A stretch of DNA of 16,955 nucleotides, taken from positions 1-16,955 of IMG/VR virus record IMGVR_UViG_2740892423_000028; one strand, written 5' to 3'. Below are positions 1 to 14,546 of the stretch, in pieces (within the stretch, counting starts at the first letter, position 1; every line of letters begins with the position of its first letter). The notes beneath the pieces are model-generated. The model had not been told where the DNA came from and did no database searches. It saw nothing but the letters and a program-made list of their open reading frames with translations. Made by a program: the position numbers and the translations under genes. This DNA is from a virus (taxonomy: Duplodnaviria > Heunggongvirae > Uroviricota > Caudoviricetes).

Positions 1-798
1 TTAATGAACATTCGTCGCCGAAAACGAGTCTGTATCATTAGCGTGATGCAGTCTCTGCAAAGGATCTTGTTGATAAAATTGACAGAAACGTTGCCACAAT
101 GAAGGGAAACGAGGAGCAAAAAGTTCTGGGGCGCTAAAGAAATATTCAGAAAGTACGGCAAAACATTCAGCAGGATCACTGGCAGCATAAGCATCAATGC
201 TCGCCGCATTCTCACCAACTAATTCGATTTCTTCCTGAATGTTGTTCATTGCAGCATGAAGATCGTGTTCCCAGCCAGCAACCTCACGCAACGAAATAAA
301 GGGAACTCCGCTGGCGCGATCGCCGTTACGGGTGTCCAGCTTATGAGCGACTTCATGAATAATCAGGTTAAAACCAGATGCATCAAAAGAATCTTGTATA
401 TCCAACCAGTTCAAAACGATAGGCCCTTGCTGCCAGCTCTGACCTGACTGAACAATACGTTGGTTATGCACCAGACCGATATCGTCTTCCCATTCATCAT
501 CGACCACAAATGGCGCAGGATAAATTAAGACTTCATGAAAACCATCCAGCCATTCCAGTCCTAACTCCAGAACGGGTAGGCAAAATAGAAGTGCTATCCG
601 GCAGCTTCTTAATGAATCCAGTTCAAAGCCCTGTAAAGGAACAAGCCGCTTTTGCTGTAAAAAACGTTCGGCAAGAGTGACTAATTTGCTTTGTTCCTGT
701 TCCGTCAGACCCGTTAAAAGGGGGATCGATAGTGCTTCCTGCCAGGGAAGGGCAGTTTGATGTGCTGATTCTTGTACTTTCCAGGGCCACTTAATCAT
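1..798 (-). CDS. mtfA: Mlc titration factor A (zinc-dependent peptidase MtfA), complete
   Basis: Translation from the internal Met reads [14 protein letters not shown]... with an HEVAH zinc-binding motif, 265 aa; the ATG was located as revcomp of cat at 796-798. The ORF-track entry 1..837 over-extends the N terminus by 13 codons. Stop TAA at 1-3 on the reverse strand. Confidence 0.9.
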
Positions 799-891
799 CG
801 TTTTGCTCGCAAACTCGTCACTTGAACAAAATTGCACGGACAGGGACTGTTAAAATGCCAAATTTCCTGACATCATGGCAACCATCTGAAC

Positions 892-981
892 GGAGAGATG
901 CCGGAGCGGCTGAACGGACCGGTCTCGAAAACCGGAGTGGGGGCAACTCCACCGGGGGTTCAAATCCCCCTCTCTCCGCCA
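892..981 (+). tRNA. serU: tRNA-Ser, anticodon CGA
   Basis: 90-nt sequence GGAGAGATGCCGGAGCGGCTGAACGG...CCGCCA with a long variable arm, anticodon loop CU-CGA-AA and 3' CCA; matches my recall of E. coli serU. The integrase lies immediately downstream. Confidence 0.9.
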
Positions 982-1026
982 AAATTCAATCACTTATACA
1001 TCATTAAGTCAGTGACAAAAATCACA

Positions 1027-1057
1027 CTTGGAATTACTTGGAATATTTTCTTGGAAT
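1027..1057 (+). repeat. Three direct repeats CTTGGAAT at 1027, 1037 and 1050; candidate arm-type integrase binding sites
   Basis: Seen directly; spacing 10 and 13 nt, between the tRNA 3' end and overlapping the integrase stop codon (the tandem copy also encodes the last residues of Int). Confidence 0.35.
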
Positions 1058-2059
1058 ATTTTCAGGTAACGGGACATCAAGTGTCGGTGAAACTTTAACC
1101 TTCCTGTCATAGATTAGCACTTGCCCCTCGGTTTTGTGACCAGAGAAAAGTTGCTTATCCCGACTGCTTCCTTCATAGTCTGAAATTCCTTTCGCCTTCA
1201 GATCATGAAAGGTGAAGTCGGTTAAAATACCTGAAATTTTGCCTGCGCGATTTCTTGCTTCTACCCACATTTCGTTAAAGCCTTTGTACATATATCGGTT
1301 GCCGTATTGATTGCTGATTACATAGGCGGATTTTGGTAACTGTTTTGCTTTTTCGATCGCCGCCTGTAATCGTGGACTCCATGCTTTTATCTGTTTTTTT
1401 CCTGTTTTCCCTTGCTGGATAAAGATCCCGTCGTTTCCAATCTGCTCCCATTTCAGCGATAACACATCGGAAACCCTCGCTGCACACAGATAGGCAATTT
1501 CCATTGCGATAAAAACAGGAAGAGGTGCAACGCTTAATACTGCCTGGTATTCTTTGTCGGTTACATATCGTTCGCGGTTTTTGGCCTTGAATTTACTTAC
1601 ACCTGCACATGGGTTAGCCTTCACGAACCCTCGCTCATACCCCCAACTGTAAACACGGGACATACTGCTTTTTTCATGGTTGGCTTGCGTTTTACTCTGT
1701 TCCCCTCTTTTGTCCATGTATCGACGGATGTGTTCTGGTTTTATGGAATCCGCTGGTACTTTACCGAATACGGCAAGCAACTTTTTTTGATGTTGCAGAT
1801 AATCTTTTTGTGTTCTTGGACTGAGGTCACTGTAATAGGCGCTGGCGAGGAATTTTTCCCACAAGCGACCGAATGTCATTGCACGATCGCGATTATTTAC
1901 AGTTTCCTCATACTTTTTCCATAAAGCAGCTAAACCATCCTTGATGGCGGTTAGTGTGACAGATTCTCTGGATGTTGGTTTCCATACATAACTATATTTA
2001 TTTGGGTATACATTTGGAGGTAATTTTTCGTGTTCAGGATTTTTCCTTCGTCTTCCCAT
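1034..2059 (-). CDS. Phage tyrosine integrase (site-specific recombinase)
   Basis: 341-aa ORF next to the tRNA, facing it; C-terminal H..R / H..Y-type catalytic region (FHDLKAKG ... SGHKTEGQVLIYDRK); start ATG overlaps the upstream gene stop by 1 nt. Confidence 0.9.
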   Translation of the reverse strand: MGRRRKNPEHEKLPPNVYPNKYSYVWKPTSRESVTLTAIKDGLAALWKKYEETVNNRDRAMTFGRLWEKFLASAYYSDLSPRTQKDYLQHQKKLLAVFGKVPADSIKPEHIRRYMDKRGEQSKTQANHEKSSMSRVYSWGYERGFVKANPCAGVSKFKAKNRERYVTDKEYQAVLSVAPLPVFIAMEIAYLCAARVSDVLSLKWEQIGNDGIFIQQGKTGKKQIKAWSPRLQAAIEKAKQLPKSAYVISNQYGNRYMYKGFNEMWVEARNRAGKISGILTDFTFHDLKAKGISDYEGSSRDKQLFSGHKTEGQVLIYDRKVKVSPTLDVPLPENIPRKYSK

Positions 2060-7929: not shown

Positions 7930-8464
7930 GCAGGCTCGCGAGGCTCTGGATGCCTGGGTATGCCGACCAGGAATGACGCAGGAGCAGGCGACGATATTAA
8001 TCACGGAAGCATTCTGGGCTCTGAAAGAACGCCCGAACATCGATGTTCATCGCGTCACGTTTGATGATGGCGCGGTTGATCAACGGGCGCTGGGCGTTAA
8101 CAGGGTGAAGATATTCGAACGCTGGAAAGCTATCGACACCAGGGATAAGCGTGAAAAATTCACGGCGCTGATTCCGGCAATTATGGAGGCTATCCGGATC
8201 AGCGATTTCAGGTTGTATTGTGAAATTACTGACGGAAAAAGCATTACGTACATGATCGCCGGGTTAAACAAAGAATATGGCGATGTGGTGGAGTCCGGGC
8301 TGCTTTTTGCGGATCCAGCTGTTGTGGAACGTGAGACTGACGAGCTTATAGAAAAAGCCATTGCTTTCAAGCGTGCGTATCGTCAGCAATACCAATATTA
8401 CTTTGCAGATAAACAAATGTCTGCCAGGGGTTCGTATGAGTATCGATGCACTACGATGGGCTAA
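7913..8464 (+). CDS. CII-like / YdaT-like protein
   Basis: 183-aa ORF overlapping the cro-like gene end; positional analogue of Rac ydaT and lambda cII. Confidence 0.6.
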   Translation: MIFTPEQAREALDAWVCRPGMTQEQATILITEAFWALKERPNIDVHRVTFDDGAVDQRALGVNRVKIFERWKAIDTRDKREKFTALIPAIMEAIRISDFRLYCEITDGKSITYMIAGLNKEYGDVVESGLLFADPAVVERETDELIEKAIAFKRAYRQQYQYYFADKQMSARGSYEYRCTTMG

Positions 8465-9890
8465 AAAGGTGAAAACCGGCAGTTCATCCAGTAAGTCAGT
8501 ATTGACCTGGCTTGCTGATATGTGCGGTGCCGATTTGTGTGCATACCCGTCTGTATCTGCACTGGCAGAAGTAACGGAGCTGAACAAAAAGACTGTGCAG
8601 GACAGCTTACGACACCTGATGGAGATTGGGTTAATTGTTGATACCGGTGAGAGAAAAGGCCGAACAAAGCAAATCGTAGTGTACCGACTTATCGGTGTAG
8701 AAGAAAGCGTTGCCGAGCCTGAATACACCCAAAAACGGGAGTCTTTAAAGGTGGGTAAAATTGGTACTGTTAATAAAAACAGTACCGAAAATGGTTATGT
8801 TTCAGCACAAAACAGCCCCAAAAACGGAACTCTTAGCTGCATGGAAAATAACCAAAGACACCCAAATTTTCCATCAAAGACACCCAAAAACGGATCACGG
8901 AACCCAAAGGAACCCAAAGATCTAAACCCCACACATAATGCACGCGAGAGTGCTCCGACCAGTGAGCAGGAAGTTTTGTCGTTACAGGCAGTGCCACCCG
9001 TATTCCTGGATGGCCTGAGCGAACCCATCGGAAAATTTCCGATGACCGATAGCTGGCATCCGTCACGGGATTTTCGACGACGGGCTGCGGTGTGGGGGAT
9101 GGCTTTGCCGGAGCCGGAATTTACACCTGCTGAACTTGCCGCCTTCCGGGACTACTGGGCAGCGGAGGGGAAAGTATTTACGCAGGTTCAGTGGGAGCAG
9201 AAATTCGCCCGTCACGTAAATCACGTCAGGGCGCAGGTTAAACCAGTCAGCAAGGGGGTGAGCCATGCAGCCGCACCAGGTGGCACCGCATCACGGGCAG
9301 TTCAGGAAATTCGGGCAGCACGTGAGCAGTGGGAACGTGAAAATGGATTTATCAGCGACGGAAACGGCGTGGAAGCTGTGGGAACTCATGGGGGAGGTTT
9401 ATTCGAACCGCTGGACCCAGAAGAACGGGGCCGCACCTNNNNNNNNNNGCTGGTCTGCCGCCAGTGCATGGACCGTTGCAGGGCAGGTGAAACATGGCCT
9501 CCGGACTTGGCTGAGTTTGTGGCGCTGATTTCGGAGAGCGGGGCAAATCCATTTGGTCTGACGGTGGATAACGTGATGGAGGAGTACCGACGCTGGCGCA
9601 ACGAGTCCTGGCGATACGACGGAAGCGATAAATACCCGTGGTCTCAGCCTGTGCTGTATCACATTTGTCTCGAGATGCGTTCAAAGGGGATTGAGCGCCA
9701 GATGACCGAAGGGGAGTTAAAACGGCTTGCAGAACGGCAACTGGCGAAATGGGCAAAGCATGTTGGTAACGGACTGAGTGTTCCACCCGTCCGTAGGCAA
9801 CTGGCAGCACCCATACGTCCTGCGGGACCAACGCCAATTGAGTTGCTGAAACAGGAATATGAACGCAGGAAAGCGGCAGGTTTTGTTTGA
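8436..9890 (+). CDS. Replication initiation / replisome organizer protein (N-terminal HTH, DnaT-like C-terminal region); interrupted by an assembly gap
   Basis: Starts at the ATG at 8436 overlapping the upstream stop (MSIDALRWAKKVKTG...); contains the N run 9439-9448, so the true length and frame continuity are unknown. Confidence 0.75.
   Translation: MSIDALRWAKKVKTGSSSSKSVLTWLADMCGADLCAYPSVSALAEVTELNKKTVQDSLRHLMEIGLIVDTGERKGRTKQIVVYRLIGVEESVAEPEYTQKRESLKVGKIGTVNKNSTENGYVSAQNSPKNGTLSCMENNQRHPNFPSKTPKNGSRNPKEPKDLNPTHNARESAPTSEQEVLSLQAVPPVFLDGLSEPIGKFPMTDSWHPSRDFRRRAAVWGMALPEPEFTPAELAAFRDYWAAEGKVFTQVQWEQKFARHVNHVRAQVKPVSKGVSHAAAPGGTASRAVQEIRAAREQWERENGFISDGNGVEAVGTHGGGLFEPLDPEERGRTXXXXLVCRQCMDRCRAGETWPPDLAEFVALISESGANPFGLTVDNVMEEYRRWRNESWRYDGSDKYPWSQPVLYHICLEMRSKGIERQMTEGELKRLAERQLAKWAKHVGNGLSVPPVRRQLAAPIRPAGPTPIELLKQEYERRKAAGFV
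9439..9448. other. Assembly gap (10 N)
   Basis: Run of exactly 10 n inside the replication gene. Confidence 0.95.
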
Positions 9891-12938: not shown

Positions 12939-13682
12939 ATGAACGCTATCACCAAAGAACGTATTGAATTGTTCATTAAAAATCCGCTTGAAAACGGGCT
13001 TACTCGTAGCGAACAAATGGAAGTGGCACGGATTGCTCTGGCATCACTGGAAGCAGAGCCAGTGGCGTGGAAGGCAACCTTCACGCAAATTGACAATGAA
13101 TATAATACGTTCACTGCTCTGTATTCTGACAAAGTAGAAGCCGAACGGTGGGTGCGACTGCATGAAATAGGTGACTTTCGGGCAGAAATAACACCACTTT
13201 ACGCAGCGCCGCCAGCACAAGTGTTACCGAACGATGGGGTTGAGCTACTGGAAGAATTCGTCTGGACTGGTGAGGAATGGAGCGTGCCATTAACTGGCTC
13301 TGAACCAGAGGATGATGTCCCTGAATCGTTCTCTGCGAGTATCAGTGTTAGTTGTGCTGATGATGTTGAGGTGTGGGTATCAGTGCCGCCGTATATGATA
13401 ATTCCCTACATTGAAGGTGATCAGGATGAGGATTTATTTGATACGTGTGCTGGAGCATTACGTATATCGTTTCTGGATTTGCTAAAGGCGTATACAAGTT
13501 CGTGCATCAGAGAGGATGCGGGGGATGGTGTTTTATACATGGCTAATTTTTTCGAGAGAATGTCGAAAAGTCTTCGTAAATTTTATGGCACCCTTCCACA
13601 GGAGGAAATAGCTGCTGCGAAGGTGGATGTTGATCTGGTCATCCCGTGGGAGCGGGGAGGTCATGAGGAGGGGGATAAGTGA
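12939..13682 (+). CDS. Hypothetical protein with the same N-terminal module and an acidic C-terminal extension
   Basis: 247 aa; contains RIALASLEAEPVAW ... PLYAAPPA; AAGGAA RBS. Confidence 0.6.
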   Translation: MNAITKERIELFIKNPLENGLTRSEQMEVARIALASLEAEPVAWKATFTQIDNEYNTFTALYSDKVEAERWVRLHEIGDFRAEITPLYAAPPAQVLPNDGVELLEEFVWTGEEWSVPLTGSEPEDDVPESFSASISVSCADDVEVWVSVPPYMIIPYIEGDQDEDLFDTCAGALRISFLDLLKAYTSSCIREDAGDGVLYMANFFERMSKSLRKFYGTLPQEEIAAAKVDVDLVIPWERGGHEEGDK

Positions 13683-13972
13683 GCTGGCCTGAAGCATTCA
13701 CAACGGTAGGAATTGCGATGGCGGTGGCGCTGGTGGTGTATTCGATTTGCCGATGGGGATAAAAACGGTTTGCGGGAAAAGGAGAGTTAAGTAGAATTGC
13801 TGCGGGTGCTTGAGGCTATCTGCCTCAGGCATGAACACCAAAAGGCAGATAGAGAAAAGCCCCAGTTAACATTACGCGTCCTGCAAGACGCTTAACATTA
13901 ATCTGAGGCCAATCCATGCTGAACACATGTAGGTTAGCCTCTTACGTGCCGAAAGGCAAGGAGAAGCAGGCT

Positions 13973-14102
13973 ATGAAGCAGCAAAAGGCGATGTTAATCG
14001 CCCTGATTGTCATCTGTTTAACCGTCATAGTGACGGCACTGGTAACGAGGAAAGACCTCTGTGAGGTACGAATCCGAACCGGCCAGACGGAGGTCGCTGT
14101 CT
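13973..14102 (+). CDS. hok: Hok/Gef-family type I toxin (HokD-like), 3' end lost in an assembly gap
   Basis: MKQQKAMLIALIVICLTVIVTALVTRKDLCEVRIRTGQTEVAV... matches my recall of HokD/RelF; AAGGAG RBS; the last ~9 codons fall in the N run 14103-14112. The ORF-track read-through to 14143 is an artefact. Confidence 0.8.
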
Positions 14103-14112
14103 NNNNNNNNNN
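14103..14112. other. Assembly gap (10 N)
   Basis: Run of exactly 10 n inside the hok gene. Confidence 0.95.
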
Positions 14113-14174
14113 AGGCGAGGGAGAAATCCCTCGCCACCTCTGATGAGTCAGGCATCCTCAACGCACCCGCACTT

Positions 14175-14201
14175 AACCCGCTTCGGCGGGTTTTGTTTTT
14201 T
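14175..14201 (+). terminator. Intrinsic terminator at the 3' end of the hok transcript
   Basis: AACCCGC-TTCG-GCGGGTT hairpin followed by TTTGTTTTTT; preceded by a perfect 9-bp GAAA-loop hairpin at 14114-14135. Confidence 0.6.
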
Positions 14202-14273
14202 CCTGGCATTCTGGTTTACAATTCGCACGTCAGCCTGAACACCTGACACCTGCTGCGCCAGCAGAGAAAACAG

Positions 14274-14546
14274 ATGGCGCACAAAACCAAATTTCACAAT
14301 TCTGATACCGACCTTGCCATCCGGCATGGGCGGCGTTCACACGCATTCAAATATGACTGGTATCAGCACGATCCCTGCACTGAAGAACAGGCCGAATGGC
14401 TGATTCAGAACTACCGCAGACGTGGGTATGAGTTTAGGAAAGCCCTCAGCCTCGATTATCGTCACTGGATAATCTACGTCAGACTCCCTTATTCCGAACG
14501 CCCACCGCGTCCGTCCCGCACATTCCAGCAACGCATCTGGAGGTAA
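14274..14546 (+). CDS. Hypothetical protein in the position of Qin rem
   Basis: 90-aa ORF whose stop lies immediately before the DUF968 gene start; weak RBS. Confidence 0.45.
   Translation: MAHKTKFHNSDTDLAIRHGRRSHAFKYDWYQHDPCTEEQAEWLIQNYRRRGYEFRKALSLDYRHWIIYVRLPYSERPPRPSRTFQQRIWR

Follow-up and report, generated by a model that had tools for sequence, protein, structure and literature searches.

The window analysed here, a stretch of 16,955 nucleotides, begins with mtfA and a tRNA-Ser gene, both matching E. coli chromosomes at 100% identity, followed by an integrase, an exonuclease VIII-like gene, dicB, a cI-like repressor, YdaT, and DnaT-like and P-like replication genes. Genes for DUF977, DUF4406 and DUF4014 proteins come next, then a hok locus, an ORF of 90 aa, and genes encoding DUF968, RusA and a Q-type antiterminator. 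By this gene order, the window belongs to a lambdoid prophage that occupies the mtfA/tRNA-Ser site of E. coli and has hok in its nin region; hok is oriented in the same direction as the early-right replication, nin and Q genes. The neighbourhood of small ORFs, hokD, DUF968, RusA and Q recurs in many E. coli prophages. Homology to Rem was considered for the 90-aa ORF downstream of hok and discarded, the tblastn search having returned a weak match elsewhere in the window (E = 0.039).

A first-pass annotation of this DNA had proposed a hok-like ORF starting at 13973 behind a strong ribosome binding site, and both features were borne out. The translation, MKQQKAMLIALIVICLTVIVTALVTRKDLCEVRIRTGQTEVAV, is visible from this ATG through 14102, and is preceded by the Shine-Dalgarno (SD) sequence AAGGAG at 13958-13963, with a spacer of 9 nt. 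Residues 1-43, those that are visible, were identical to K-12 HokD at 43 of 43 positions (tblastn E = 4.6e-24), and the peptide matched the Pfam family PF01848, HOK_GEF, with an E-value of 2.1e-20 (cutoff 22 bits).

The toxin ORF runs into a placeholder of 10 Ns, where relatives carry 32 nt, TCACAGCTTACGAACCTGAGGAGTAAGAGACC, corresponding to FTAYEPEE, a stop codon and 5 further nt. This count was obtained from alignments with five E. coli chromosomes (including that of ETEC1746) and two phages, with all chromosomal and phage relatives in agreement. Codons 44-51 and the stop of hok fall inside the gap, as the first-pass annotation had stated of the last codons; the stretch concealed by these 10 Ns is 32 nt long in relatives, rather than 10. 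As the window lacks the 3' end of the frame (8 codons and the stop) and 5 nt beyond it, an intact hok frame is assumed from these relatives, in all of which the frame is intact at this position; ETEC1746, for instance, has a leader 100% identical to that of the window and a complete hokD. Read without interruption, hok across the gap would be TTCACAGCTTACGAACCTGAGGAGTAA, and the interval 14050-14160 would then measure approximately 133 bp (111 bp seen, less 10 Ns, plus 32).

A second run of 10 Ns, at 9439-9448, corresponds to about 50 nt in a relative of 99.8% identity, in which two separate genes are annotated (DnaT-like and replication protein P) where the window has a single ORF, 8361-9890, fused across the Ns. 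Length-preserving masking was thereby ruled out for both runs; as 10 Ns stand for 32 nt in one case and about 50 nt in the other, the Ns are placeholders of unspecified length. Genomes had a median of 2 places matching the hok segment, with a maximum of 11, and up to 5 places matching the replication segment around the 9439 gap. It is plausible that repeated hok copies broke the assembly and so produced the gap, and the location of both gaps in modules present several times per genome fits this idea. A window-specific 39-mer immediately 3' of the hok gap had 0 exact matches in a scan of genome contigs.

Upstream of the toxin ORF, the window matched the Rfam family RF01794 on the plus strand at 13804-13978, with 118.6 bits (gathering score 59), an E-value of 5.5e-27 and the full model covered (positions 1-157 of 157). 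Despite the family name, 'sok antitoxin', the model describes the sense-strand hok mRNA leader, and the match ends at the hok AUG. Based on the start of this model and on alignment to the 5' end of the R1 hok mRNA, GGCGCUUGAGG, the 5' end of the transcript was set near 13804, which gives a leader of 169 nt. A leader of approximately 290 nt, as initially described, was thus overstated: a leader filling the whole of 13683-13972 was rejected, as about the first 120 nt of this interval are occupied by a 27-codon ORF and the putative promoter. The -10 hexamer of the latter, TAGAAT, ends 6 nt upstream of the predicted +1 and matches the position of TATGAT relative to the 5' end of the R1 hok mRNA, whilst the copies on IncY plasmids have TACAAT there.

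The 27-codon ORF has a GTG start that shares bases with the preceding gene's stop codon. An ATG start following the ribosome binding site GGAGGTGA or GAAGGTGA is found instead in PCN033, 933W and pAR-0430, and other variants include an in-frame 6-nt deletion in P13-6 and loss of the start codon in phage 689R5. The ORF accompanies the hok module in prophages and is absent from plasmid copies, in which homology begins at 13792; it had no Pfam match and was unannotated in this frame among the records examined.

Table 1. Features of the hok locus, with positions given in window coordinates.
Feature	Position	Strand	Basis or detail
27-codon hydrophobic ORF, V/MSWPEAFTTVGIAMAVALVVYSICRWG	13679-13762	+	conserved in relatives
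Putative hok promoter	13769-13797	+	-35 TTTGCG 13769-13774, 17-nt spacer, -10 TAGAAT 13792-13797
Predicted full-length hok mRNA, about 420 nt with 32 nt restored	13804-14201	+	RF01794 start, R1 alignment, terminator T-run
tac element GGGUGCUUGAGG, at mRNA 5' end	13804-13815	+	pairs with 14156-14168 in full-length fold
Candidate Sok antisense RNA, 70 nt	13855-13924	-	positional counterpart of sokW in 933W
ucb / anti-SD box (AAGCCCCAG region)	13856-13864	+	pairs with mok SD region in full-length MFE
mok initiation region	13905-13918	+	SD GAGG 13905-13908, ATG 13916-13918
Putative Sok promoter	13931-13959	-	-35 TTGCCT 13959-13954, 17-nt spacer, -10 TAACCT 13936-13931
hok (hokD-type) toxin CDS, codons 1-43	13973-14102	+	HokD identity, Pfam PF01848
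10-N placeholder gap	14103-14112		alignments with relatives
3' UTR hairpin, 9-bp stem, GAAA loop	14114-14135	+	sequence, MFE
fbi element CCUCAACGCACCC	14156-14168	+	helix with 13804-13815
Intrinsic terminator, stem AACCCGC/GCGGGTT, TTCG loop, T-run	14175-14201	+	terminator scan

Within the leader, the mok ORF (13916-14143) is open in frame through hok, such that its extension, MLNTCRLASYVPKGKEKQA, lies N-terminal to Hok; the whole product still matches HOK_GEF, and the in-frame mok/hok arrangement also occurs in relatives. We take this to be the gef/hokC-type arrangement, in which MokC is presumably an in-frame N-terminal extension of HokC that starts MLNTCR, the corresponding residues of the window being MLNTCRLASYV. 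The hokC (gef)/mokC pair differs in forming a separate chromosomal locus outside a prophage, the K-12 copy of which is disrupted downstream by an insertion sequence.

The closest annotated counterpart was found in the 933W record (AF125520.1), in which mokW, hokW and sokW are annotated on a segment 94.8% identical to 13680-14102. When the coordinates of this record were mapped allowing two 1-nt indels, the mokW CDS start fell at 13916, the hok start at 13973 and Sok at 13855-13924 on the minus strand. A minus-strand, sok-like RNA had been suggested as a check on the locus, and the candidate so located differs from the 'SokW antisense RNA' misc_RNA of 933W by 1 substitution and 1 indel. It is predicted to fold into a long hairpin that is preceded by 14 unpaired nt at the 5' end and followed by UUUU (-28.7 kcal/mol, z = -5.15). 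Both the SD and the AUG of mok lie within 13855-13924 and are complementary to the candidate, and this region ranks among the most conserved stretches of the locus.

The putative -10 hexamer of Sok, TAACCT, ends 7 nt before 13924, where a start agrees with the sokW annotation in 933W. A generic sigma-70 scan of 13600-14300 returned 0 promoters on either strand, and thus passed over these weak hexamers as well as those of hok; as both promoters fall below the threshold of the scan, they were assigned purely by positional homology, and both are weak matches to the consensus. TTGCCT and TAACCT align with a stretch of R1 that holds TTGCGC and TATCCT, which we take to be the Sok promoter of R1. That promoter is active, and its hexamers are no nearer to the consensus than those of the window.

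These observations bear on the possibility that the toxin gene alone is functional, as a phage lysis helper within the early-right (nin) operon and with no Sok RNA. Such a role would accord with the co-orientation of hok with the replication, nin and Q genes and with the lack of a consensus promoter on either strand in the generic scan, and HokW does aid lysis and phage release upon induction (PMC8621323). However, a near-identical sokW RNA was seen on a northern blot, and mutants of its promoter were toxic (PMC8621323). The Sok region is moreover among the most conserved of the locus, and the fold of the candidate is typical of an antisense RNA that has a terminator. The R1 Sok promoter, too, is active despite hexamers no closer to the consensus. 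We therefore regard a lone lysis gene as extremely unlikely, and favour a locus that also encodes an antitoxin RNA.

Downstream of the gap, the perfect 9-bp hairpin with a GAAA loop and the intrinsic terminator, both of which had been noted from the sequence, were recovered. The hairpin stem (GGCGAGGGA / TCCCTCGCC) is probably the protective 3' stem-loop of the processed mRNA, and mutation of the last stem-loop of the truncated hok mRNA of R1 abolishes toxicity (PMC9841398). The terminator, with its stem-loop at 14175-14192 and T-run to 14201, was the sole terminator-like site that the scan detected between 13600 and 14300, and K-12 hokD has an identical one. The fbi element between these two structures is kept in 6 of the 6 relatives that retain the 3' UTR.

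Several K-12 hok genes, namely hokA, hokC and hokE, are disrupted copies. The gap could likewise conceal damage to hok, whether by frameshift, by truncation or by an insertion sequence about 1.3 kb long, in which case the locus would be a dead relic. The Ns are of unspecified length, replacing at least 32 nt here and about 50 nt at the second run; insertion sequences are repeats that break short-read assemblies, and K-12 hokD is itself rearranged and without a leader. Furthermore, IncY and IncHI1B plasmid copies of the same hok hold the end of an IS186-family element (IS421) within the 3' hairpin, with loss of fbi and the terminator. In the window, however, plain hok sequence flanks the Ns on both sides with no IS terminus, and the G-rich hairpin, the insertion site in the plasmid copies, is intact and perfect immediately after the gap; on these two grounds an insertion sequence in the gap was judged unlikely. 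The remaining regulatory elements are also intact, with the leader matching at 100% identity that of a genome with a complete hokD, and exactly 32 nt are found at the gap in all aligned chromosomal and phage relatives. A relic is thus very unlikely, and the reading of an intact toxin gene within a complete locus is preferred.

The folding of the mRNA had also been proposed as a check, to look for pairing between its 5' and 3' ends, and such pairing was predicted. For these folds 32 nt were borrowed from the relatives, the tac and fbi partners both lying outside the gap. The repaired 420-nt mRNA had an MFE of -173.7 kcal/mol (z = -7.64 against 100 dinucleotide shuffles), and a tac-fbi helix of 12 bp with one bulged C was present in both the MFE and the centroid structures, with pair probabilities of 0.97-1.00. 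Both the match to the hok mRNA family (RF01794, E = 5.5e-27) and the fold (z = -7.64) are far beyond chance. The closed full-length MFE has the mok SD region (13904-13909) occupied by pairing with 13859-13864. In the predicted MFE of 13804-14155, from which fbi is removed, tac moves to 13857-13863 and the mok SD is mostly unpaired. The leader alone folds like this truncated form, and both agree with the RF01794 consensus structure. The predicted switch of the window from tac/fbi to tac/ucb pairing is that described for R1 (PMC9841398).

Covariation was sought for the tac-fbi helix among eight close relatives, in which the helix was invariant wherever the 3' UTR is homologous. As it never varies in close relatives, the comparison with R1 is the sole source of covariation-type support for this helix: R1 has GGCGCUU/AAGCGCC where the window has GGGUGCUU/AA(C)GCACCC, a compensated difference. 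Compensated pairs among the relatives themselves were found in the first leader hairpin (C-G to U-A) and in a hairpin within the hok CDS (G-C to A-U). The 3' hairpin is a further site of compensated change: its fifth pair is A-U in the window, G.U in P13-6, K-12 and ETEC1746, and G-C in 933W. Apparent 'double changes' in helices 14 and 15 were disregarded, since in the 933W-type and plasmid rows of the alignment the downstream sequence that produced them is not homologous.

Comparison with named systems showed the greatest resemblance to hokW-sokW (933W and Sakai Sp5), which has in common with the window the 27-codon ORF, the leader, an in-frame mok, the Sok region, the 3' hairpin and fbi, and which is likewise located in lambdoid prophages. 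The two differ in that the 933W sequence departs just 3' of fbi, without the terminator of the window, and in that the 933W locus lies near the genome end by late/accessory genes, whereas that of the window is in the nin region 5' of DUF968, RusA and Q. The toxin C-terminus also separates the types, being FTAYEPEE in hokD-type relatives and FVDYESEK in HokW, with that of the window hidden by the gap. In Sp5, HokW is toxic, and the 71-nt sokW was shown to be its antitoxin, with an effect partly dependent on RNase III and Hfq (PMC8621323). The sokW RNA was seen by northern blot, and mutations of its promoter unleashed toxicity; following mitomycin C treatment, sokW was lost and HokW was produced, and phage release was doubled with the hokW-sokW locus present, HokW aiding lysis on induction (PMC8621323).

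The R1 comparison utilized the R1-type locus of pAPEC-O2-R, which is 100% identical over 332 nt to the R1 hok sequence. The order of elements was the same in R1 and the window, running from tac, the first hairpin, the Sok-target hairpin and the mok SD and AUG to the Sok promoter region, the hok SD, hok, the 3' stem-loop, fbi and the terminal hairpin. Both loci belong to the same Rfam family and have the same predicted closed and open folds (PMC9841398). They differ in that R1 mok overlaps hok out of frame whilst mok of the window is in frame, and in that R1 hok/sok is a plasmid locus and that of the window is in a prophage. As our figure for divergence of the toxin from that of R1, we utilize the approximately 44% identity between HokW and R1 Hok (PMC8621323).

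The first-pass annotation had contrasted the locus with the relBE-hokD arrangement of the Qin prophage of K-12, and this contrast was upheld. In K-12, relB and relE sit directly upstream of hokD (relF), with relE ending 71 nt before it, whereas the window has no relBE and retains the whole leader. No relB or relE was identified in the window by tblastn with K-12 RelB, K-12 RelE and a second RelB (best E = 0.62), nor were RelE/ParE or RelB domains identified by Pfam in the candidate-gene ORFs of the window of at least 60 aa. The toxins are identical over the 43 visible residues, and the SD, 3' hairpin, fbi and terminator are nearly identical. Downstream of hokD, Qin carries rem, ydfU (DUF968) and ydfT (Q), of which DUF968 and Q are common to the window. 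Given that homology to K-12 begins just 17 nt before the hok ATG, K-12 hokD has lost the promoter, tac, mok and Sok.

The leader (13800-13958, at least 80% coverage) was found in 4257 of 5426 complete E. coli genomes (approximately 78%), the median copy number being 2 and the maximum 8, and no annotated feature lay over it in any genome among the matches listed. The free-standing hok/sok is thus the common form, and the relBE-hokD of K-12 is the exception. A survey has also found hok genes to be enriched in prophages (10.1101/2025.08.07.668861).

Taken together, the presence of the leader, mok, the Sok region, tac and fbi, the 3' hairpin and the terminator agrees with the initial suggestion of a free-standing type I locus, and we consider it very probable that the lambdoid prophage of the window carries, in its nin region, a complete type I toxin-antitoxin cassette that belongs to the hok/sok family and, within it, to the hokD/hokW-sokW subtype. 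Its mechanism may be proposed from homology with R1 hok/sok and Sp5 hokW-sokW. The weak promoter would give rise to a stable mRNA of about 420 nt (13804-14201), in which tac at the 5' end would pair with fbi and hold the molecule in a closed fold, with the mok RBS held by the upstream anti-SD box, so that both ribosomes and Sok would be blocked. Slow trimming from the 3' end would then take off fbi, whereupon tac would pair with the anti-SD box and expose the mok SD and AUG. Translation of mok, in frame with hok, would lead to production of a 51-aa membrane toxin, the last eight codons being presumed from relatives. The short-lived Sok of about 70 nt (13924 to 13855, minus strand) would bind the exposed mok initiation region, forming a duplex that would block translation and be targeted by RNase III. 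Toxin would consequently arise only once Sok synthesis stops, as when the element is lost, transcription is shut off or the prophage is induced. For the window copy, we infer Hok toxicity, neutralization by Sok and cleavage by RNase III by analogy with these systems. In a passage citing earlier work, a preprint relates that tested chromosomal hok loci gave no post-segregational killing (10.1101/2025.08.07.668861), and activity of the window copy would therefore not be guaranteed.

A more direct link to prophage induction, in which antiterminated early-right read-through crosses the hok locus and activates the toxin, was also considered and appears unlikely. The cassette lies within the delayed-early (replication-nin-Q) transcription unit of this prophage and is co-oriented with it. 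If true, read-through could run into the convergent Sok promoter and shut it down, and could also yield 5'-extended hok transcripts unable to form the tac/fbi lock. The 27-codon ORF, encoding a membrane peptide, might belong to such an induction-linked unit.

The locus is of an already known kind and is effectively an already known member of it, as hok/sok of lambdoid prophages has been annotated in 933W (AF125520.1), was the subject of experiments in 2021 (PMC8621323) and is covered by a large-scale survey posted as a 2025-2026 preprint (10.1101/2025.08.07.668861). Nonetheless, automatic annotation marks 'hokD' alone, leaving the Sok RNA, mok and the leader unlabelled, and the K-12 relBE-hokD that often serves as the reference is a truncated exception. 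For annotation of the assembly, it matters that the two 10-N placeholders cut hok short and fuse replication genes into one false ORF.

According to one preprint, the mRNAs in which TadA edits a tyrosine codon include that of hokD (10.1101/2025.08.07.668861). The sole tyrosine codon of hokD in the relatives, TAC in GCTTACGAA, sits within the stretch hidden by the gap, and would presumably be the edited codon.

The Rfam model RF01794, which carries the name ‘sok antitoxin’, matched the hok-sense strand of the window (13804-13978, +), and the consensus of this model stops at the hok AUG. Because the match lies in the hok sense and the consensus ends at this codon, RF01794 is a model of the hok mRNA leader and not of the antisense RNA, and the strand of the match should not be taken for that of Sok, the putative antisense RNA. 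At the other end of the locus, two plasmid copies of the hokD-type locus (L007, IncY; L008, IncHI1B) were found to carry an end of IS421, an IS186-family element, within the G-rich 3' GAAA hairpin, at a point equivalent to approximately position 14120 of the window, and both had lost the fold-back inhibitory element (fbi) and the terminator through this insertion. The hok loci of K-12 are disrupted by IS elements in a similar manner, immediately downstream, and the 3' GAAA hairpin of the hokD-type locus looks like an insertion hot spot. The segment 13680-14194 was also 97.8% identical to PP818812.1 (Actinobacillus phage vB_Apl-pPE4, H79), the host label of which, Actinobacillus pleuropneumoniae, is unexpected for so near a match to an E. 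coli lambdoid segment.

Open reading frames flanked the hok locus on both sides (see table). The conserved hydrophobic ORF of 27 codons, which overlaps the stop codon of the preceding gene, accompanies the hok module in prophages, and its versions in relatives possess a Shine-Dalgarno sequence and an ATG; in strain P13-6 it differs by a 6-nt in-frame indel. It had no Pfam match, and annotation in its frame was absent from all records examined. This ORF may encode a real small membrane protein.

Features of the window outside the hok coding region.
Feature	Coordinates	Strand	Remarks
tRNA-Ser	892-978		
Integrase gene	1034-2059	-	immediately beside tRNA-Ser
Single 509-aa ORF	8361-9890		spans Ns at 9439-9448
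Conserved hydrophobic ORF, 27 codons	13679-13762	+	V/MSWPEAFTTVGIAMAVALVVYSICRWG
59-aa ORF	14148-14327	-	overlaps hok 3' UTR and start of next gene
Conserved 90-aa ORF	14274-14546	+	directly after hok terminator

Downstream, neither the 59-aa nor the 90-aa ORF had a Pfam match. The former, designated a ‘hypothetical protein’ in RefSeq genomes and a ‘mobile element protein’ in some phage records, is probably a spurious call. The latter was located between hokD and a DUF968 gene in every relative examined, and is labelled ‘toxin to Rem’ in one phage record despite lacking homology to K-12 Rem.

Another N run, of exactly 10 Ns, interrupts the replication region. In RM10740, which at 99.8% identity is the nearest of the complete genomes, approximately 50 nt stand in its place and two distinct genes are present, one DnaT-like and the other for replication protein P; because of this, the 509-aa ORF of the window is a fusion artefact, its reading passing through the Ns.

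The insertion site of the prophage adjoins mtfA and tRNA-Ser (window 1-2059), and close relatives of these prophage modules occupy other sites, for instance ompW in RM10740.
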